A stretch of DNA of 64,000 nt, taken from sequence record PV946933.1; one strand, written 5' to 3'. This DNA comes from a phage. Shown here in pieces: positions 25,127 through 34,044 of this stretch (the first letter of the stretch is position 1; each line of letters begins with the position of its first letter). Under the pieces are notes generated by a model. It did no database searches, was not told where the DNA came from, and saw only the letters and a list, made by a program, of their open reading frames with translations. The translations under genes were made by a program, and so were the position numbers.

Positions 25127-27823
25127 ATGAAAGAATTTTATATCTCTATCGAAACAGTCGGAAATAATATTGTTGAACGTTATATTGATGAAAATGGAAA
25201 GGAACGTACTCGTGAAGTAGAATATCTTCCGACTATGTTTAGGCATTGTAAGGAAGAGTCAAAATACAAAGACATTTATGGTAAAAATTGTGCTCCTCAA
25301 AAATTTCCATCAATGAAAGATGCCCGAGATTGGATGAAACGAATGGAAGACATCGGTCTCGAAGCTCTCGGTATGAACGATTTTAAACTCGCTTATATCA
25401 GTGATACATATGGTTCAGAAATTGTTTATGACCGAAAATTTGTTCGTGTAGCTAACTGTGACATTGAGGTTACTGGTGATAAATTTCCTGACCCAATGAA
25501 AGCAGAATATGAAATTGATGCTATCACCCATTATGATTCAATTGACGACCGTTTTTACGTCTTTGATTTGTTGAATTCAATGTACGGTTCAGTATCAAAA
25601 TGGGATGCAAAGTTAGCTGCTAAGCTTGACTGTGAAGGTGGTGATGAAGTTCCTCAGGAAATTCTTGACCGAGTAATTTATATGCCATTTGATAATGAGC
25701 GTGATATGCTCATGGAATATATTAATCTCTGGGAACAGAAACGACCTGCTATTTTTACTGGTTGGAATATTGAGGGATTTGACGTTCCGTATATCATGAA
25801 TCGTGTTAAAATGGTTCTCGGTGAACGTAGTATGAAACGTTTCTCTCCAATCGGTCGAGTAAAATCTAAACTAATTCAAAATATGTACGGTAGCAAAGAA
25901 ATTTATTCTATTGATGGCGTATCTATTCTTGATTATTTAGATTTATACAAGAAGTTCGCATTTACTAATTTGCCATCGTTCTCTTTGGAATCAGTTGCTC
26001 AACATGAAACCAAAAAAGGTAAATTGCCGTACGATGGTCCTATTAATAAACTTCGTGAGACTAATCATCAACGATACATTAGTTATAACATCATTGACGT
26101 AGAATCAGTTCAAGCAATTGATAAAATTCGTGGGTTTATCGATCTAGTTTTAAGTATGTCTTATTATGCTAAAATGCCTTTTTCTGGCGTAATGAGTCCT
26201 ATTAAAACTTGGGATGCTATTATTTTTAACTCATTGAAAGGTGAACATAAGGTTATTCCTCAACAAGGTTCGCACGTTAAACAAAGTTTTCCAGGTGCAT
26301 TTGTATTTGAACCTAAAGCGATTGCTCGTCGATACATTATGAGTTTTGACTTGACGTCTCTATATCCTAGCATTATTCGTCAGGTTAACATTAGTCCTGA
26401 AACTATTCGTGGTCAGTTTAAAGTTCATCCAATTCATGAATATATCGCAGGAACAGCTCCTAAACCGAGTGATGAATATTCTTGTTCTCCGAATGGATGG
26501 ATGTATGATAAGCATCAAGAAGGTATCATTCCAAAGGAAATCGCTAAAGTATTTTTCCAGCGTAAAGATTGGAAAAAGAAAATGTTCGCCGAAGAAATGA
26601 ATGCCGAAGCTATTAAAAAGATTATTATGAAAGGTGCAGGGTCTTGTTCAACTAAACCAGAAGTTGAACGATATGTTAAGTTCAATGATGATTTCTTAAA
26701 TGAATTATCGAATTACACCGAATCTGTTCTTAATAGTCTGATCGAAGAATGTGAAAAAGCAGCTACACTTGCTAACACAAATCAGCTGAACCGTAAAATT
26801 CTTATTAACAGTCTTTATGGTGCTCTTGGTAACATTCATTTCCGCTATTATGATTTGCGAAATGCTACTGCTATCACAATTTTCGGTCAAGTTGGTATTC
26901 AGTGGATTGCTCGTAAAATTAATGAATATCTGAATAAAGTATGTGGAACTGATGGTGAAGATTTCATCGCAGCAGGTGATACTGATTCGGTATATGTTTG
27001 TGTAGATAAAGTTATTGAAAAAGTAGGTCTTGACCGCTTTAAAGAACAAAATGATTTAGTTGAATTCATGAATCAGTTTGGTAAGAAAAAGATGGAACCT
27101 ATGATTGATGTTGCATATCGTGAGTTATGTGATTATATGAATAACCGCGAGCATCTGATGCATATGGACCGTGAAGCTATTTCTTGCCCTCCACTTGGTT
27201 CAAAGGGTGTTGGTGGATTTTGGAAAGCGAAAAAACGTTATGCTCTAAACGTTTATGATATGGAAGATAAGCGATTTGCTGAACCACATCTAAAAATCAT
27301 GGGTATGGAAACTCAGCAGAGTTCAACACCAAAAGCAGTACAAGAAGCTCTCGAAGAAAGTATTCGTCGTATTCTTCAGGAAGGCGAAGAGTCTGTCCAA
27401 GAATACTACAAGAACTTTGAGAAAGAATATCGTCAACTTGACTATAAAGTTATTGCTGAAGTAAAAACTGCGAACGATATAGCGAAATATGATGATAAAG
27501 GTTGGCCAGGATTTAAATGCCCGTTCCACATTCGTGGGGTGCTAACTTATCGTCGAGCTGTTAGTGGTTTAGGTGTAGCTCCAATTTTGGATGGAAATAA
27601 GGTAATGGTTCTTCCATTACGTGAGGGAAATCCATTTGGTGACAAGTGCATTGCTTGGCCGTCGGGTACGGAACTTCCAAAAGAAATTCGTTCTGATGTA
27701 CTGTCTTGGATTGACTACTCAACTTTGTTCCAAAAATCGTTTGTTAAACCGCTTGCGGGTATGTGTGAATCGGCAGGTATGGACTATGAAGAAAAAGCTT
27801 CGTTAGACTTCCTGTTTGGCTGA
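25127..27823 (+). CDS. 43: DNA polymerase gp43 (family B)
   Basis: 898 aa; exo and pol motifs (YGDTDS); recognised as T4 gp43. Confidence 0.95.
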   Translation: MKEFYISIETVGNNIVERYIDENGKERTREVEYLPTMFRHCKEESKYKDIYGKNCAPQKFPSMKDARDWMKRMEDIGLEALGMNDFKLAYISDTYGSEIVYDRKFVRVANCDIEVTGDKFPDPMKAEYEIDAITHYDSIDDRFYVFDLLNSMYGSVSKWDAKLAAKLDCEGGDEVPQEILDRVIYMPFDNERDMLMEYINLWEQKRPAIFTGWNIEGFDVPYIMNRVKMVLGERSMKRFSPIGRVKSKLIQNMYGSKEIYSIDGVSILDYLDLYKKFAFTNLPSFSLESVAQHETKKGKLPYDGPINKLRETNHQRYISYNIIDVESVQAIDKIRGFIDLVLSMSYYAKMPFSGVMSPIKTWDAIIFNSLKGEHKVIPQQGSHVKQSFPGAFVFEPKAIARRYIMSFDLTSLYPSIIRQVNISPETIRGQFKVHPIHEYIAGTAPKPSDEYSCSPNGWMYDKHQEGIIPKEIAKVFFQRKDWKKKMFAEEMNAEAIKKIIMKGAGSCSTKPEVERYVKFNDDFLNELSNYTESVLNSLIEECEKAATLANTNQLNRKILINSLYGALGNIHFRYYDLRNATAITIFGQVGIQWIARKINEYLNKVCGTDGEDFIAAGDTDSVYVCVDKVIEKVGLDRFKEQNDLVEFMNQFGKKKMEPMIDVAYRELCDYMNNREHLMHMDREAISCPPLGSKGVGGFWKAKKRYALNVYDMEDKRFAEPHLKIMGMETQQSSTPKAVQEALEESIRRILQEGEESVQEYYKNFEKEYRQLDYKVIAEVKTANDIAKYDDKGWPGFKCPFHIRGVLTYRRAVSGLGVAPILDGNKVMVLPLREGNPFGDKCIAWPSGTELPKEIRSDVLSWIDYSTLFQKSFVKPLAGMCESAGMDYEEKASLDFLFG

Positions 27824-27836
27824 TAGAATAAATCTA

Positions 27837-27858
27837 GGGACCTCCAGGTCCCTTTTTC
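27837..27858 (+). terminator. rho-independent terminator after gene 43
   Basis: GGGACC-TCCA-GGTCCC then TTTTT. Confidence 0.65.
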
Positions 27859-27939
27859 ATACAAGTAATATAAATCTATACTTATGAAAAAGAGATGATT
27901 CTGGACCCTTTGGATTCCCTAAAATTTTTTCACAAAACT

Positions 27940-27969
27940 GTTTACATCCCTGTTCTTCCATGGTACTAT
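27940..27969 (+). promoter_or_regulatory. early promoter
   Basis: GTTTAC-N18-TGGTACTAT plus conserved leader. Confidence 0.6.
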
Positions 27970-28006
27970 ACAACTATCAACTACTGATACGGATTTGGAG
28001 AATGAA

Positions 28007-28387
28007 ATGAAAATCGCTATTTTGGTTATTGCATTGGGTCTTACTGGTTGTGTAGCTCAAGGACCGGTAGTAAATCAGTCTGATGTAGGAAAAATTGTAA
28101 ACTGTTCAAGCAAATTTTATAATCCTAATGTCAAGTGTTATAAAGAAGCTCCAAAACAGACAGTAGAACAAATGCAGGCGAATTTTGACGAAGCTATTCG
28201 TCCAGATGAATCTGCACAAGCATATCGTAATTCAGATGTGATTACGCGTGAAGAAAAAATTGAAAACTACTGCGCCATGCTTTGGGCAAATTGGGCTAAT
28301 AATTACCAATGGCGTACAGGTAAAAACGCTCCGATGGAGTATGTAGTGAATTCTTATAATTCATGTGTAAAAAATTTGACTAAGTGA
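28007..28387 (+). CDS. putative lipoprotein
   Basis: 126 aa; signal peptide with lipobox LTGC; flanked by terminator and promoter upstream. Confidence 0.5.
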   Translation: MKIAILVIALGLTGCVAQGPVVNQSDVGKIVNCSSKFYNPNVKCYKEAPKQTVEQMQANFDEAIRPDESAQAYRNSDVITREEKIENYCAMLWANWANNYQWRTGKNAPMEYVVNSYNSCVKNLTK

Positions 28388-28394
28388 GGAAAAC

Positions 28395-28646
28395 ATGGAA
28401 ACTTTAGTAGCAGGTTCAATTTTTATGGTTTTAGTTTCAGGCGTGTTGGCTATTATTATATACATGCTTCCGTGGTTCATCGCCTTGATGCGTGGGTCAA
28501 AATCGACAGTAGGAATCTTTTTCACATCTTTACTGTTTAACTGGTCAATTATCGGTTGGTTTATTACATTTATTTGGTCAATTGCCGGTGAAACTAAAAA
28601 ATCTGCACAGCAAAACCAAGTAATTATCATCAGAGAGAAGGAATGA
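28395..28646 (+). CDS. imm: superinfection immunity membrane protein Imm
   Basis: 83 aa, two TM helices; between 43 and 42 as in T4. Confidence 0.8.
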   Translation: METLVAGSIFMVLVSGVLAIIIYMLPWFIALMRGSKSTVGIFFTSLLFNWSIIGWFITFIWSIAGETKKSAQQNQVIIIREKE

Positions 28647-28792
28647 AAAGCAAAATTATAGCAGTGCTGCTTTTAATCTTGATGATTATAATAAGTATAT
28701 ACTATAGTGTAACGGTTCCTCTTATGATTCCAACGCTTATTATAGGGTGGAGTTTATTACTGTTACAAGTTAAATATGAATGTATCAATTGA
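28643..28792 (+). CDS. small hydrophobic peptide
   Basis: 49-aa ORF, ATG overlaps imm stop. Confidence 0.35.
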   Translation: MKSKIIAVLLLILMIIISIYYSVTVPLMIPTLIIGWSLLLLQVKYECIN

Positions 28793-28799
28793 GGTTTAA

Positions 28800-29540
28800 A
28801 TGATTAATGACTCTATGACAGTTGAAGAAATCCGTCTTCATTTAGGAATTGCATTAAAGGAAAAAGATTTCGTAGTTGATAAAACTGGTGTTAAAACTAT
28901 TGAAATTATTGGTGCATCATTTGTAGCAGATGAACCTTTTATTTTTGGTGCTCTTAATGATGAATACATTCAGCGTGAACTTGAATGGTATAAATCTAAA
29001 AGTTTGTTTGTTAAAGATATTCCGGGTGAAACACCGAAGATTTGGCAGCAGGTAGCATCTTCTAAAGGCGAAATTAATTCGAATTACGGTTGGGCCATCT
29101 GGTCAGAAGATAACTATGCTCAGTATGATATGTGTTTAGCTGAACTTGGTCAAAATCCTGATTCTCGCCGCGGTATCATGATTTATACTCGTCCATCCAT
29201 GCAGTTTGACTACAACAAAGATGGTATGTCAGATTTCATGTGTACGAATACAGTACAGTACCTGATTCGTGATAAGAAAATTAATGCAGTGGTTAACATG
29301 AGAAGTAATGATTGCTGGGCAGGCTATCGTAATGATTATGCATGGCAAAAATACGTACTAGATAAATTAGTATCTGATTTGAATGCAGGCGACCCATCGC
29401 GGCAATATAAAGCAGGTTCTATTATATGGAACGTTGGAAGTCTTCATGTTTACGAAAATCAGTTTTATTTAGTTGACCATTGGTGGAACACCGGTGAAAC
29501 TCATATTGCTAAAAAGGATTATACTGGAAAATGGAAGTAA
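28800..29540 (+). CDS. 42: dCMP hydroxymethylase gp42
   Basis: 246 aa; recognised as T4 gp42. Confidence 0.93.
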   Translation: MINDSMTVEEIRLHLGIALKEKDFVVDKTGVKTIEIIGASFVADEPFIFGALNDEYIQRELEWYKSKSLFVKDIPGETPKIWQQVASSKGEINSNYGWAIWSEDNYAQYDMCLAELGQNPDSRRGIMIYTRPSMQFDYNKDGMSDFMCTNTVQYLIRDKKINAVVNMRSNDCWAGYRNDYAWQKYVLDKLVSDLNAGDPSRQYKAGSIIWNVGSLHVYENQFYLVDHWWNTGETHIAKKDYTGKWK

Positions 29541-30172
29541 ATGTGCCACATGTTTATAAGTATAAACATCCTAAAACTAAAAAGTGGTATATAGGAAGTC
29601 ACGATGGTCACAACCCGAATTATGATGGTTCGGGTGTAGTTTGGCAACATGCTAAAAAGAAATATGGAATAAAATCCTTTAATAAAGAAATATTATATGA
29701 AGGACCGATGTTTAGACAAGTTGAAGAAATTATTTTAACTTGTTTAGATGCTGCTAATTGCCCGGATTCATATAATTTAAAGAATGAAGCGTGGGGAGGA
29801 AGTTTTCCAGGTAAATTAAATGGAATGTACGGTAAGAAACTATCTCCAGAAGAAAGATATAAATGTGGAAATGCCTTTCGTGGAATCAAGCGTCCTGATC
29901 ATTCTAAAAGAATGAAAGGCGAAGGTAATCCAATGTATGGTAAAAATGAACAGGCATATGGAATTATAAATCGAGCAAAGGAAAATTCTGGTAAAACTTA
30001 TGAAGAAATTTTTGGCGCAGAAAAAGCTAAAATAATTAAAGAAACGATGTCTAAAAATCGTAAAGGAAAACCTCATAATTTGATAGAAAAAATATGTCCG
30101 CATTGCGGACTAAAAGGACGTGGGCCAAATATGACAAGATACCATTTTGACAAATGTAAGGCACTTAAATGA
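29531..30172 (+). CDS. GIY-YIG family homing-endonuclease-like protein with NUMOD3-type repeats (Seg-like)
   Basis: N-terminal VYKYKHPKTKKWYIGSH (GIY-x8-YIG-like); repeated GxxxSxExRxKxSxxxKG segments; overlaps 3' end of gene 42. Confidence 0.55.
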   Translation: MEVNVPHVYKYKHPKTKKWYIGSHDGHNPNYDGSGVVWQHAKKKYGIKSFNKEILYEGPMFRQVEEIILTCLDAANCPDSYNLKNEAWGGSFPGKLNGMYGKKLSPEERYKCGNAFRGIKRPDHSKRMKGEGNPMYGKNEQAYGIINRAKENSGKTYEEIFGAEKAKIIKETMSKNRKGKPHNLIEKICPHCGLKGRGPNMTRYHFDKCKALK

Positions 30173-31011
30173 TTCAATTCGTAATTCCAAGTTATCAACG
30201 CGTAGGGGCAGTTTCTGCCCTTGATATGTTTCCATCTGATTATGAACCACATATTGTAGTACGTAAACACGAAGAAAAAGCTTATTATGACGCTTATGGG
30301 TCTAGAGCTAAAATTATAACTATTCCTGATGATGTTAATGGAATTGCTGGTACTCGTAAAGCAATTACTGATATGTATGCAGGTCAACGAATTTGGATGA
30401 TTGATGATGATACTACTATTCGTATGAGTTCAATGCGAAAGAAAGATGATCGTCGCTGCGTAGATAAAATTAATCAATTAACCCGTGAACAGTTCTATGA
30501 ATTGATTCAATACGTTGAAGATGCCATGGATTGCGGGTATTATCATGGCCATGCTCGTCTACCTATTTTTAAAATTACTTCATCTTGGGGTAATTATCGT
30601 GAAAATTCATATGGATTCACGAATACTTGGTATGACCTCGGGAAACTTACTACAGAACAAATTGGGTATGGAAAAATTGATTTATGCGAAGATATGTATG
30701 CATTTCTCAATTTAATTAATCAAGGTTATCCGCATTTGGCCTTGTTCAAATATCTGGTTGTATCTGGAAAAGCACAAGCTCCTGGCGGATGTAGTTCAAT
30801 TCGTAGTAATTCAAAACATAATAGAGCGCTCGAGCAAATCAATAGAGAGTTTCCAGAGCAAGCTCGTTGGAAAACTTCTAATATTGAAAAACGAAAATCA
30901 TTAGGTGAAGAAGACGAGCCATTAAAGGTTCTTCGTATGTGTGTTTCGCGCAAAGAAAAATCAGAAGCGTTTCATAAGTTTAGTGCTATTCATCCAATAG
31001 CAGTTGATTAA
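30169..31011 (+). CDS. GT-A fold glycosyltransferase (candidate DNA-HMC glucosyltransferase, not T4 beta-gt)
   Basis: 280 aa; IPSYQR near N-terminus and DxD-type IWMIDDDTTI; occupies the slot of beta-gt. Confidence 0.55.
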   Translation: MIQFVIPSYQRVGAVSALDMFPSDYEPHIVVRKHEEKAYYDAYGSRAKIITIPDDVNGIAGTRKAITDMYAGQRIWMIDDDTTIRMSSMRKKDDRRCVDKINQLTREQFYELIQYVEDAMDCGYYHGHARLPIFKITSSWGNYRENSYGFTNTWYDLGKLTTEQIGYGKIDLCEDMYAFLNLINQGYPHLALFKYLVVSGKAQAPGGCSSIRSNSKHNRALEQINREFPEQARWKTSNIEKRKSLGEEDEPLKVLRMCVSRKEKSEAFHKFSAIHPIAVD

Positions 31012-31088
31012 TGCCTAAATTTATTGTGTTATAATTACTTTATCTTTAACCAGTGAGGAAAATATAATGATGCCTATGGAAAAAATGA

Positions 31089-32270
31089 ATGTCTATTGCA
31101 GATTTAAAATCCCGTTTGATTAAAGCTTCCACTTCTAAAATGACTGCTGAACTGACTACATCTAAATTCTTTAATGAAAAGGATGTAATCCGTACGAAAA
31201 TCCCAATGCTTAATATCGCTATTTCTGGCGCGATTGATGGTGGTATGCAGTCTGGTTTAACTATTTTTGCAGGTCCTTCTAAACACTTTAAATCAAATAT
31301 GTCTTTGACTATGGTTGCGGCGTATTTGAACAAATATCCTGATGCGGTTTGTTTATTCTATGATAGCGAATTTGGTATCACTCCAGCTTATTTGCGATCC
31401 ATGGGAGTTGACCCGGAACGAGTAATTCATACACCAATCCAGTCAGTTGAACAACTGAAAATTGATATGGTGAATCAGCTTGAAGCTATCGAGCGCGGTG
31501 AAAAAGTTATTGTATTCATCGACTCAATCGGTAATATGGCTTCTAAGAAAGAAACGGAAGATGCCTTGAATGAAAAATCTGTGGCAGATATGACTCGTGC
31601 TAAATCACTGAAGTCATTATTCCGTATTGTTACTCCTTATTTTAGTATTAAAAACATTCCATGTGTTGCGGTTAACCATACAATTGAAACAATTGAAATG
31701 TTTAGTAAAACCGTGATGACAGGTGGTACAGGCGTAATGTATTCGGCTGATACTGTATTCATTATCGGTAAGCGCCAGATTAAAGATGGTTCCGATCTTC
31801 AGGGATATCAATTTGTTCTAAATGTAGAAAAATCTCGTACTGTCAAAGAAAAAAGTAAATTCTTTATTGATGTTAAATTTGACGGTGGTATCGATCCTTA
31901 TTCTGGATTGTTAGATATGGCTCTTGAATTAGGATTTGTAGTAAAACCTAAAAATGGCTGGTATGCTCGTGAATTTCTTGATGAAGAAACCGGCGAGATG
32001 ATTCGCGAAGAAAAATCTTGGCGTGCAAAAGATACCAATTGCACTACATTCTGGGGTCCTTTATTTAAGCATCAACCATTCCGAGATGCTATTAAACGTG
32101 CTTATCAGTTAGGTGCTATTGATAGTAATGAAATTGTTGAAGCTGAAGTCGACGAATTGATTAACTCAAAGGTTGAAAAATTTAAATCTCCAGAAAGTAA
32201 AAGTAAATCAGCTGCTGATTTAGAAACTGACCTAGAACAGTTAAGTGATATGGAAGAATTTAATGAATAA
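31089..32270 (+). CDS. uvsX: recombinase UvsX (RecA-like)
   Basis: 393 aa; recognised as T4 UvsX. Confidence 0.95.
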   Translation: MSIADLKSRLIKASTSKMTAELTTSKFFNEKDVIRTKIPMLNIAISGAIDGGMQSGLTIFAGPSKHFKSNMSLTMVAAYLNKYPDAVCLFYDSEFGITPAYLRSMGVDPERVIHTPIQSVEQLKIDMVNQLEAIERGEKVIVFIDSIGNMASKKETEDALNEKSVADMTRAKSLKSLFRIVTPYFSIKNIPCVAVNHTIETIEMFSKTVMTGGTGVMYSADTVFIIGKRQIKDGSDLQGYQFVLNVEKSRTVKEKSKFFIDVKFDGGIDPYSGLLDMALELGFVVKPKNGWYAREFLDEETGEMIREEKSWRAKDTNCTTFWGPLFKHQPFRDAIKRAYQLGAIDSNEIVEAEVDELINSKVEKFKSPESKSKSAADLETDLEQLSDMEEFNE

Positions 32271-32607
32271 AGATGATTTAGATTTAGATCTAGAAATTAT
32301 CGACGAATCCCCCTCTTCAGAGGGGGAAGAAGAAAGAAAAGAACGCCTTTTTAATGAATCTCTTAAGATAATTAAATCTGCCATGGAAAATGTTATCCAG
32401 GAGATTGTCATTAAACTAGAAGACGGTTCTACACACATTGTGTATGTGACAAAATTAGATTGGGTTGATGGAAAAGTCGTAATGGACTTTGCTGTTCTTG
32501 ACCAAGAAAGAAAAGCTGAGTTAGCTCCTCATGTAGAAAAATGTATTACAATGCAACTACAAGATGCATTTAATAAAAGGTCAAAGAAAAAATTTAAATT
32601 CTTTTAA
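32263..32607 (+). CDS. 40: gp40-like protein (head vertex assembly)
   Basis: 114 aa from ATG 32263; T4 gene 40 position between uvsX and 41. Confidence 0.55.
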   Translation: MNKDDLDLDLEIIDESPSSEGEEERKERLFNESLKIIKSAMENVIQEIVIKLEDGSTHIVYVTKLDWVDGKVVMDFAVLDQERKAELAPHVEKCITMQLQDAFNKRSKKKFKFF

Positions 32608-32616
32608 GGAGTAAGT

Positions 32617-34044
32617 GTGGTAGAAATTATTCTTTCTCATCTCATATTTGATCAAGCTTATTTTTCAAAAGTTTGGCCATATATGGATTCAGAATATTTT
32701 GAAAGTGGTCCAGCTAAAAATACGTTCAAATTAATTAAATCTCATGTTAATGAGTACCATAGCGTTCCATCTATTAATGCGTTAAATGTTGCATTAGAAA
32801 ATAGTTCATTTACTGAAACAGAATATTCTGGTGTAAAAACACTTATTTCAAAACTGGCTGATTCTCCGGAAGACCACAGTTGGTTAGTAAAAGAAACGGA
32901 AAAATATGTTCAGCAAAGGGCGATGTTTAATGCTACGTCTAAAATAATTGAAATTCAAACTAATGCTGAACTTCCTCCGGAAAAACGAAATAAGAAAATG
33001 CCGGATGTTGGTGCTATTCCTGACATCATGCGCCAAGCATTATCAATTTCATTTGATAGTTACGTTGGTCATGATTGGATGGATGACTATGAAGCACGTT
33101 GGCTATCTTATATGAATAAAGCCCGTAAGGTTCCATTTAAACTCAAAATTCTAAATAAAATTACTAAAGGCGGAGCTGAGACTGGAACACTGAACGTTTT
33201 AATGGCTGGTGTTAACGTTGGTAAGTCATTAGGATTATGTTCATTAGCAGCAGATTATTTACAGCTCGGACATAATGTTCTTTACATTTCCATGGAAATG
33301 GCAGAAGAAGTCTGTGCTAAGCGTATTGATGCTAATATGCTTGATGTTTCTCTTGATGACATTGATGATGGACATATTTCTTACGCTGAATATAAAGGAA
33401 AAATGGAAAAATGGCGTGAGAAATCTACTCTCGGTCGTTTAATCGTTAAACAGTATCCTACTGGTGGAGCAGACGCTAATACATTTCGTTCTCTTTTGAA
33501 CGAATTGAAGCTCAAGAAGAATTTTGTTCCAACAATCATTATTGTCGACTATCTAGGTATTTGTAAATCTTGCCGCATCAGAGTTTACTCAGAAAATAGT
33601 TACACAACTGTTAAAGCTATCGCAGAGGAATTGCGTGCTCTGGCTGTTGAAACCGAAACTGTTCTTTGGACTGCAGCGCAGGTTGGTAAGCAAGCTTGGG
33701 ATTCTTCTGATGTTAACATGAGCGATATTGCAGAATCCGCCGGTCTTCCAGCAACAGCTGATTTTATGCTTGCGGTCATTGAAACCGAGGAGTTAGCAGC
33801 TGCTGAACAACAACTCATTAAGCAAATCAAATCACGATATGGTGATAAGAATAAATGGAATAAGTTTTTGATGGGTGTTCAAAAAGGAAATCAAAAATGG
33901 GTAGAAATTGAGCAAGATTCTACTCCAACTGAAGTGAACGAAGTAGCAGGTTCACAGCAGATTCAGGCTGAACAGAACCGCTATCAAAGAAATGAATCGG
34001 CTCGAGCTCAGTTAGATGCTTTGGCAAATGAATTAAAATTTTAG
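32617..34044 (+). CDS. 41: replicative DNA helicase gp41 (DnaB-like)
   Basis: 475 aa, GTG start after AAGGAG; Walker A GVNVGKS; recognised as T4 gp41. Confidence 0.95.
   Translation: MVEIILSHLIFDQAYFSKVWPYMDSEYFESGPAKNTFKLIKSHVNEYHSVPSINALNVALENSSFTETEYSGVKTLISKLADSPEDHSWLVKETEKYVQQRAMFNATSKIIEIQTNAELPPEKRNKKMPDVGAIPDIMRQALSISFDSYVGHDWMDDYEARWLSYMNKARKVPFKLKILNKITKGGAETGTLNVLMAGVNVGKSLGLCSLAADYLQLGHNVLYISMEMAEEVCAKRIDANMLDVSLDDIDDGHISYAEYKGKMEKWREKSTLGRLIVKQYPTGGADANTFRSLLNELKLKKNFVPTIIIVDYLGICKSCRIRVYSENSYTTVKAIAEELRALAVETETVLWTAAQVGKQAWDSSDVNMSDIAESAGLPATADFMLAVIETEELAAAEQQLIKQIKSRYGDKNKWNKFLMGVQKGNQKWVEIEQDSTPTEVNEVAGSQQIQAEQNRYQRNESARAQLDALANELKF

Follow-up and report, generated by a model that had tools for sequence, protein, structure and literature searches.

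A probable Seg-type homing endonuclease gene between gene 42 and ba-gt of a T-even-like phage and its linked gene 42 tract

In the 64,000-nucleotide stretch of phage DNA under study (record PV946933.1, hereafter the window), which comes from a T2/T6/RB32-like Tequatrovirus genome, a plus-strand open reading frame (ORF) of 213 amino acids (aa) lies at 29531..30172 between gene 42 and a glucosyltransferase gene. It is called here the Seg ORF and its product the Seg protein, the N-terminus of which is MEVNVPHVYKYKHPKTKKWYIGSH in the open-reading-frame listing. A reading made from the letters alone (the sequence-only reading) had proposed a 213-aa ORF starting 10 nucleotides (nt) inside gene 42, and an exact match is present: the ATG lies 10 nt inside gene 42, the stop codon of which (TAA) is at 29538-29540. 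The same reading had placed the gene between two conserved DNA-modification genes. Upstream, the gene 42 product matches Pfam Thymidylat_synt and phrog_160 (E-value 3e-66). Downstream, the neighbour is the T2/T6-type beta-glucosyl-hydroxymethylcytosine-alpha-glucosyltransferase gene (ba-gt, 280 aa; phrog_842, E-value 4e-88; Pfam TAGT), and uvsX comes only after it, starting at 31089 across a gap of 77 bp. This neighbour is not the T4 beta-gt gene. The TGA of the Seg ORF (30170-30172) shares the tetranucleotide ATGA with the ATG of ba-gt (30169). No intron or intein is involved, and both neighbouring genes are intact in the window and contiguous in the empty allele. The best match of the Seg ORF is found in Escherichia phage OES_C-2, with 99.8% over the ORF. 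The features discussed below are collected in Table 1.

Table 1. Features at and around the Seg ORF, in window positions.
Feature	Coordinates	Strand	Basis
Seg-type free-standing homing endonuclease ORF	29531..30172	+	ORF listing, PHROG match, phage records, dN/dS
GIY-YIG catalytic domain, Seg subtype, aa 1-95	29531..29815	+	Alignments, hhalign, AF2, Foldseek
Helical linker with NUMOD3-like GK/GR-rich motifs, aa 97-185	29819..30085	+	Pfam, homologues, AF2 helices
C2HC zinc-finger-like module, C189-x2-C192...H205-x3-C209	30086..30157	+	Conservation, predicted beta-beta-alpha
Gene 42 3' end, seg-linked haplotype	29301..29530	+	Carrier (seg+) versus non-carrier (seg-) divergence, linkage
Cluster A, gene 42 codons R168-Y176, candidate cleavage and immunity site	29301..29327	+	Alignments, linkage
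Seg ORF translation start, ATG at 29531 with upstream purines	29524..29533	+	Carrier-specific substitutions
Gene 42, dCMP (deoxycytidine monophosphate) hydroxymethylase, upstream host gene and putative target	28800..29540	+	Pfam, PHROGs
ba-gt, ATG overlapping the Seg ORF TGA, flank unlinked to the Seg ORF	30169..31011	+	Pfam, PHROGs, alignment

The Seg ORF is a real gene under purifying selection. Compared with five other Tequatrovirus copies, it displays 10-13 synonymous and 0-2 non-synonymous differences, corresponding to a ratio of non-synonymous to synonymous substitution rates (dN/dS) of 0-0.04, and the comparison with a 70%-identical Klebsiella copy gives a dN/dS of 0.17. Given its match to phrog_314, its presence in 87 phage records, the low dN/dS and the conservation of its ATG start in Klebsiella phage Mexia, it is more than a chance ORF. 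Frameshifted copies, split into two shorter ORFs, are observed in the REP2/REP3, PYps5T, BCH953P2 and Roth67/Roth04 phage records; these fit the decay of a selfish gene in some lineages, and sequencing errors are also possible.

With regard to expression, no late promoter TATAAATA was found near the Seg ORF, the sigma-70-like matches near it on the plus strand were no more numerous than the shuffled expectation, and no significant RNA hairpin was found over its start (z -0.36). Since no expression signals of its own were found, read-through from gene 42 transcripts is assumed, and, because the Seg ORF overlaps its two neighbours, gene 42 and ba-gt, the message of gene 42 may also be the one from which it is translated; we infer that the Seg ORF is expressed in this manner. 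Substitutions specific to carriers at 29524, 29528, 29529 and 29531 create the ATG and its upstream purines within the last codons of gene 42, and the Shine-Dalgarno-like AAGG of ba-gt falls within the Seg ORF. At 30203-30223, 35 nt inside the ba-gt coding sequence, there is a G+C-rich hairpin, TAGGGGCAGTTTCTGCCCTTG, the conservation of which extends to carriers and non-carriers alike and to Klebsiella phage Mexia.

In order to assign the Seg protein to a family, it was compared with profile, sequence and structure collections. It matches the PHROGs 'homing endonuclease' family phrog_314 with an E-value of 1.8e-31, and an identical protein is already present in GenBank, mostly as 'hypothetical protein', and in UniRef under the automatic label 'homing endonuclease'. 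In an alignment of the Seg protein with 54 homologues from a 5.8-billion-protein collection (55 sequences), Y20, G22 and N82 are invariant, Y9, Y31, G33-S34-G35, K44, G46 and E65 are conserved in at least 90%, and a further conserved module is seen at the C-terminus (C189-x2-C192...N200, R203-Y204-H205...C209). The key residues of the catalytic domain are Y9, Y20-I-G22, Y31xGSG35, K44-Y-G46, E65/E66 and Y81-N82, with V8-Y9-K10 and Y20-I21-G22 as the 'GIY' and 'YIG' strand motifs. On hhalign, Y9, Y20, E65 and Y81-N82 pair with Y6, Y17, the catalytic E75 and Y89-N90 of I-TevI, respectively. Among the 55 aligned sequences, 36 match NUMOD3, 17 match SegE_GIY-YIG (PF19835) and nine match GIY-YIG (PF01541) in Pfam at E<0.01.

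The structure of the Seg protein was then predicted from this alignment with AlphaFold2 (AF2), giving a mean predicted local distance difference test (pLDDT) score of 89.6, and of 93-98 over aa 11-80. On Foldseek against the PDB the three best matches are chains of the I-TevI catalytic domain (1mk0 and 1ln0; probability 1.00, target template modelling (TM) score 0.61-0.67, root-mean-square deviation 2.8-3.2), the best being 1mk0 (probability 1.0, TM 0.67). A sequence search of PDB chains returned nothing meaningful (best E-value 0.54, a sugar-binding protein), and I-TevI was found by fold comparison only. The sequence-only reading had described a GIY-YIG-like N-terminus, and both the alignment and the fold agree with it. 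In the AF2 model, the linker at aa 97-185 is predicted to be helical and presumably binds the DNA minor groove, and the C-terminal 28 residues are predicted to form a beta-beta-alpha unit with a weak, non-significant Foldseek resemblance to C2HC/C2H2 fingers.

On IMG/VR contigs, this C-terminal C2HC module, CPHCGxxGxGxNMTRYHFDNCK, is found again at the C-terminal end of endonuclease-like ORFs, those of the GIY-YIG type as well as those of the HNH type. Besides the window, it was seen at the loci that we number L016, L018, L025, L048, L051, L053, L059, L063, L068, L076 and L086, with seven tandem copies in L068 and two in L076. A Pfam search with the 39-aa module alone gave no match, and no Pfam family covers it. 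It appears to be a DNA-binding module, so far undescribed, that is shuffled among phage homing endonucleases.

The sequence-only reading had also stated that such genes are variably present among relatives, and this holds at the junction in question. A 1442-bp query across the gene 42/ba-gt junction matched 517 GenBank phage records, of which 87 match over the full query: 78 Tequatrovirus records at 95-100% identity and nine Klebsiella phages at about 75%. Roughly 400 further records, a figure that rests on 46 of 60 evenly spaced ones, are empty sites, matching in two pieces that span 810 bp. Carrier and empty alleles differ by exactly 632 bp, and roughly one related phage in six carries the Seg ORF. 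The empty site of T2, where the TGA of gene 42 overlaps the ATG of ba-gt, reads ...GGTGAGTGGAAATGATTCAATTC. The same 632-bp difference is observed in Jiaodavirus, with nine carriers against ~130 empty sites. The population analysis was performed on GenBank phage records, an exact-pattern scan of IMG/VR for the ba-gt start having given five loci, which are too few. In Klebsiella phage vB_KpnM_GF (MK421971, a partial genome; L004:1364-2090), gene 42 is truncated at codon 215 and followed directly by the last ~30 endonuclease codons. Either the assembly is at fault here, or a deletion of ~640 bp has removed the end of gene 42 together with most of the endonuclease gene.

The presence of the gene is linked to a diverged tract at the 3' end of gene 42. 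In an alignment of six carriers and eight non-carriers over the region 27000-33000, the Tequatrovirus carriers and non-carriers diverge by 16-21% in 29281-29540 and by 2-6% elsewhere. The right flank shows no excess divergence, and polymorphisms 20-65 bp past the ORF already segregate in both groups. In gene 42, the substitutions form four clusters, A (29301-29327), B (29393-29405), C (29450-29476) and D (29489-29531), and cluster D contains those that create the ATG and upstream purines of the Seg ORF. Cluster A is a recoding of CGC TCA AAT GAC GTG GTC TTC GGA TTC (RSNDVVFGF) into AGA AGT AAT GAT TGC TGG GCA GGC TAT (RSNDCWAGY), in which Arg and Ser each switch codon family (CGC TCA to AGA AGT) without an amino acid change. 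The allele of T2, T4, T6 and the non-carrier Jiaodavirus phages is CG[CT] TCN AAY GAY GTS GTC TTY GGA, that is RSNDVVFG. With a chimeric query combining cluster A and the 5' part of the ORF, 91 records were matched: 78 with both, 13 with cluster A only and none with the ORF without cluster A. Hence all of the Tequatrovirus carriers have cluster A (78/78). The 13 non-carriers with cluster A may have arisen by recombination or by loss of the endonuclease gene, or they may be 'immune empty' alleles. Two non-carriers, apparently recombinant, have partial carrier haplotypes: LH2 (L098) has cluster A only and BYEP01 (L002, OR757453) has clusters A-C.

In Jiaodavirus, too, divergence between carriers and non-carriers is high in the final ~270 bp of gene 42, at 25-32%, compared with 2-4% elsewhere, the right flank included, and the left boundary of the diverged tract falls at the same codons as in Tequatrovirus. 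A Jiaodavirus origin of the Tequatrovirus block was considered and rejected, since the 240-bp end of gene 42 shows 74% identity to the Klebsiella carrier and 86% to T2. The alignments indicate that the moving unit is a block of ~866 bp (29301-30166) found in otherwise freely shuffled backgrounds, and the linked gene 42 tract would be the signature of co-conversion as read from populations, not from a cross.

By its motifs, fold, layout and population behaviour, the Seg ORF is a Seg-type member of the free-standing GIY-YIG homing endonucleases, and we infer that its product is active. The sequence-only reading had proposed such a gene, and the motifs, the fold, the family, the 632-bp polymorphism and the co-conversion-like tract all speak for that proposal. 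With good confidence, we propose that the Seg ORF is a functional enzyme of the Seg subtype that would home by cutting the common allele of gene 42. During mixed infection with a phage lacking the gene, the enzyme would make a double-strand break in this allele, most likely in the active-site-loop segment R168-F176 (29301-29327), which lies ~230 bp before the insertion point. Recombinational repair on the carrier template would then copy an unbroken ~866-bp block consisting of the resistant gene 42 3' end and the endonuclease gene. The Seg ORF itself would be read from gene 42 transcripts, with its start within the last gene 42 codons and its stop overlapping the ba-gt start. As a rule, a free-standing endonuclease cleaves at a distance of hundreds of bp from the gene that encodes it, with obligatory co-conversion of the sequence in between (PMC2988022, section 7). 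The one-sided linkage, in which the gene is never found without cluster A and cluster A occurs without the gene, fits a sensitive site and an immune allele.

The target is likely to lie within the 3'-terminal 240 bp of gene 42; a target at cluster A itself is put forward at somewhat less than even confidence. The catalytic residues of the T4 gene 42 product (gp42) are C148 and D179, which would make cluster A the active-site loop just before N178-D179. The cluster A segment (RSND-VVFGF) has its homologue in QRSVDVFLG|LPFN of T4 td, a segment with both the I-TevI cleavage motif CAACG and the point of td intron insertion. The end of td exon 1 was checked in L008, where it reads CAACGCTCAGTAGATGTTTTCTTGGGT, followed by the 1017-bp intron and then by CTACCGTTTAAT. 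The I-TevI cuts fall in a CNNNG motif and lie 23 and 25 nt upstream from this insertion point (PMC2988022).

Several observations weigh against a functional endonuclease that cuts gene 42 at cluster A. Some concern the protein. A Pfam search with the Seg protein gave no GIY-YIG match (PF01541, PF19835), and the sequence-only claim of several NUMOD3-like repeats is only partly borne out, with one sub-threshold match to PF07460 at aa 125-138 (18.1 bits, cut-off 20.4), the motif being recognised in its homologues as given above. Of the catalytic Arg, Glu and Asn residues, which were checked by alignment, Glu (E65) and Asn (N82) are present and the canonical Arg has no counterpart, the I-TevI helix with R27 and H31 falling in a 10-residue deletion in the Seg protein on hhalign. 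Furthermore, no dedicated promoter or regulatory hairpin was found for the Seg ORF, and literature searches on the gene found no paper. Others concern the tract. Substitutions fixed across all 14 genomes lie only in cluster D; CWAGY is also found in a non-carrier, the Gelderlandvirus Salmonella phage STP4-a; some distant carriers (L103, L105 and L106) have the motifs LVLGY, LFHGW and QILGF instead; the left boundary that the two genera share could be set by the homology available for crossovers and not by the break; and cluster A may be merely the allele of the donor lineage. As a marker of carriers at any depth, CWAGY was rejected on account of STP4-a and of the three distant carriers.

The missing counterpart of Arg27 and the lack of a Pfam GIY-YIG match would suit a domesticated or catalytically dead relic, kept as a DNA-binding protein or because its deletion disturbs translation of the glucosyltransferase, and the overlap of the Seg stop with the ba-gt start, together with the position of the ba-gt AAGG inside the ORF, points in the same direction. 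We nevertheless consider a relic improbable. Little or no variation is seen at the catalytic Tyr, Glu and Asn among the 55 homologues, dN/dS stays at 0-0.04 over the whole length of the ORF, the gene and its fixed 866-bp block occur in many otherwise shuffled backgrounds, which fits active spread, and the empty sites show that the downstream gene works without the Seg ORF. As to the Arg, T4 SegA, SegC, SegD and SegE have the same Arg-less short loop in the alignment and on BLASTP, and SegA, SegC and SegE are listed as experimentally active (PMC2988022, Table 1). Given that these three active proteins share the loop, the absent Arg marks the Seg subtype and is no sign of inactivity.

The observations on the tract bear on where an active enzyme would cut. 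Its site could instead be at or near the insertion point, in a stretch made up of the gene 42/ba-gt junction and the final ~45 bp of gene 42 (cluster D), with clusters A-C hitch-hiking from the donor. Such a site would account for the confinement of fixed substitutions to 29489-29531 in the six carriers versus eight non-carriers, for clusters A-C in BYEP01 and cluster A in LH2 without the gene, and for CWAGY in STP4-a. Against it, four of the changes in cluster D are explained by the creation of the ORF start codon and its upstream purines, a break at the junction should yield symmetrical and variable co-conversion, the right flank is already unlinked 20-65 bp from the gene, and the left block is unbroken in every one of the 78 carriers. 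We regard a cut at the insertion point as rather unlikely.

The preferred reading, homing by a cut within gene 42, was also considered in the light of the genes that adjoin relatives of the Seg ORF. For relatives with 44-70% identity, a gene of the thymidylate-synthase family (PF00303) lies directly upstream in all ten distinct contexts, the window included; the others are Klebsiella phage Mexia, the IMG/VR loci L010, L011/L012 and L013/L014, Yersinia phage MHG19 and four metagenomic phages. The gp42 homologues of L010, L011/L012 and L013/L014 are only 49-62% identical, and in MHG19 the relative is located between gene 42 and a T4-type b-gt. The downstream neighbours are mutually unrelated, comprising a deoxycytidine monophosphate deaminase with PolA, a helicase, a nucleoside triphosphate (NTP)-transferase and genes of unknown function. 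Since the PF00303 gene is upstream in all contexts and the downstream genes are unrelated, the upstream gene is the constant partner, which by analogy would be the usual relation of a free-standing endonuclease to its target gene. More distant Seg-like proteins (25-31% identity) have no adjoining PF00303 gene. We tentatively suggest a clade of free-standing GIY-YIG endonucleases, spread widely over unrelated phage groups and specialised on thymidylate-synthase-family genes (dCMP hydroxymethylase and its relatives), which would have its cleavage and immunity site in the RSND-VVFG loop, at the structural position used by I-TevI in td, swap the C-terminal third of gene 42 (with residues near D179) between genera and share the C2HC module with HNH endonucleases.

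The sequence-only reading had left open whether the gene is T4 segA or a different insertion, and alignment with the T4 proteins, the locus and co-occurrence settle this in favour of a different insertion. The Seg protein was compared with T4 SegA-G and I-TevI, taken from NC_000866. On BLASTP its first ~100 residues are 36% identical to SegC (E-value 2e-12), 36% to SegB, 36% to SegE, 32% to SegA and 31% to SegD, and the signature Y..YIGxH..YxGSG..KYG..E..YN is common to it and the T4 Seg proteins, the closest of which are SegC and SegB, followed by SegD, SegA and SegE. T4 has segA between b-gt and uvsX (order 42, b-gt, segA, uvsX) and segD between genes 23 and 24. The identification with segA was rejected: the locus differs, the 32% identity covers the N-terminal domain only, and both genes co-occur. 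A displaced orthologue of segA or segD is extremely improbable. Indeed, one GenBank record names the gene 'SegD homing endonuclease' and the N-terminal Seg motif is common to the Seg protein and the segA and segD products, but the C-terminal domains are unrelated, segA and segD occupy other positions in T4, and a true segA adjoins ba-gt in phage LH2 and co-occurs with the Seg ORF in Salmonella phage Manna. With a chimeric query combining the Seg ORF and segA, 112 records were matched, two of them with both genes (e.g. Manna, PP987310, 24455-26499).

Some further observations were made on segA in these phages. In LH2 (L098:3754-4419), the segA gene is near-identical to that of T4 and lies between ba-gt and uvsX, an arrangement seen in some T2-type phages. 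It is present in only ~27 records, and in two records segA and the Seg ORF flank the glucosyltransferase gene on both sides.

Other irregularities were noted in the surrounding region. In two metagenomic T4-like phages (L013:6225-8556 and L014:5346-7677), the uvsX homologue is in two ORFs ~900 bp apart, which suggests an insertion (an intron, an intein or another endonuclease gene). In BYEP01 (L002:3800-3810 onward), an annotated 'NUMOD3 motif protein' gene directly follows uvsX, where the window has gene 40; a further endonuclease insertion within these 5 kb is the probable explanation. In the window itself and at the corresponding place in related phages, the segment from gene 43 to imm.1 (27900-28006) is indel-rich with ~10% local divergence, and some relatives have there a 237-bp ORF that is absent from the window.

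The Seg ORF extends the T-even homing-endonuclease repertoire by a Seg-type member at a new locus, for which gene 42 would be a new target, and a site of marker exclusion is predicted in crosses of carrier phages with T2, T4 or T6. A selfish gene would drag part of an essential nucleotide-modification gene, including residues beside the active site, across phage lineages. If the predicted target is true, the active-site loop of the thymidylate-synthase fold would have been hit independently by intron-encoded and free-standing GIY-YIG enzymes, the Seg enzyme would be the free-standing counterpart of the td intron endonuclease, and the case would bear on the origin of mobile introns from free-standing endonucleases. 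The known picture of how such elements work is unchanged.

Compared with known systems, the Seg ORF resembles T4 SegA-SegG in its ~210-aa two-domain layout, in its Seg N-terminal motif without the I-TevI Arg27 helix and in its NUMOD3-type linker, as well as in its position between conserved phage genes, its variable presence and the co-inheritance of flanking sequence. It differs from them in its locus, the gene 42/ba-gt junction, which is unoccupied in T4, and in its 31-36% identity over ~100 N-terminal residues only; unlike the T4 Seg proteins in the alignment, it has a C-terminal C2HC zinc finger. The presumed logic is that of SegF, which cuts gene 56, and of SegG, which cuts gene 32: the endonuclease gene adjoins a conserved gene and the break would lie hundreds of bp within it. 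For SegF and SegG of T4, the tract between the distant break and the endonuclease gene is obligatorily co-converted, resulting in localized marker exclusion (PMC2988022); unlike theirs, the distal site proposed for the Seg ORF is deduced from population linkage.

A second comparison is with I-TevI, with which the Seg protein has in common the GIY-YIG catalytic fold, a zinc finger and a NUMOD3 element in the DNA-binding part, and a host gene of the thymidylate-synthase family. I-BmoI, from a Bacillus thyA intron, is like I-TevI of the T4 td intron a GIY-YIG enzyme that targets the active-site loop of thymidylate synthase. Unlike I-TevI, the Seg protein is free-standing, lacks the Arg27 helix and is only ~20% identical, and its gene lies 230 bp downstream of the presumed site and not at the site. 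A third case is found at the gene 42/ba-gt junction itself, where Klebsiella phage Merci (OK499981, L112:1690-2220) has a 'putative HNH endonuclease', as does Phi_KR8 (PP442064). Like the Seg ORF, the Merci ORF overlaps gene 42 by 10 nt and shares ATGA with ba-gt, but it belongs to an unrelated nuclease family. The 3' end of gene 42 in Merci is that of a non-carrier, diverging by 5-6% from non-carriers and by 22-38% from carriers of the Seg ORF. The junction is a hot spot shared by two nuclease families, and among its occupants the Seg protein stands as an uncharacterised addition to the T4 Seg group, distinguished by its locus, its presumed target in gene 42 and its C-terminal zinc finger.

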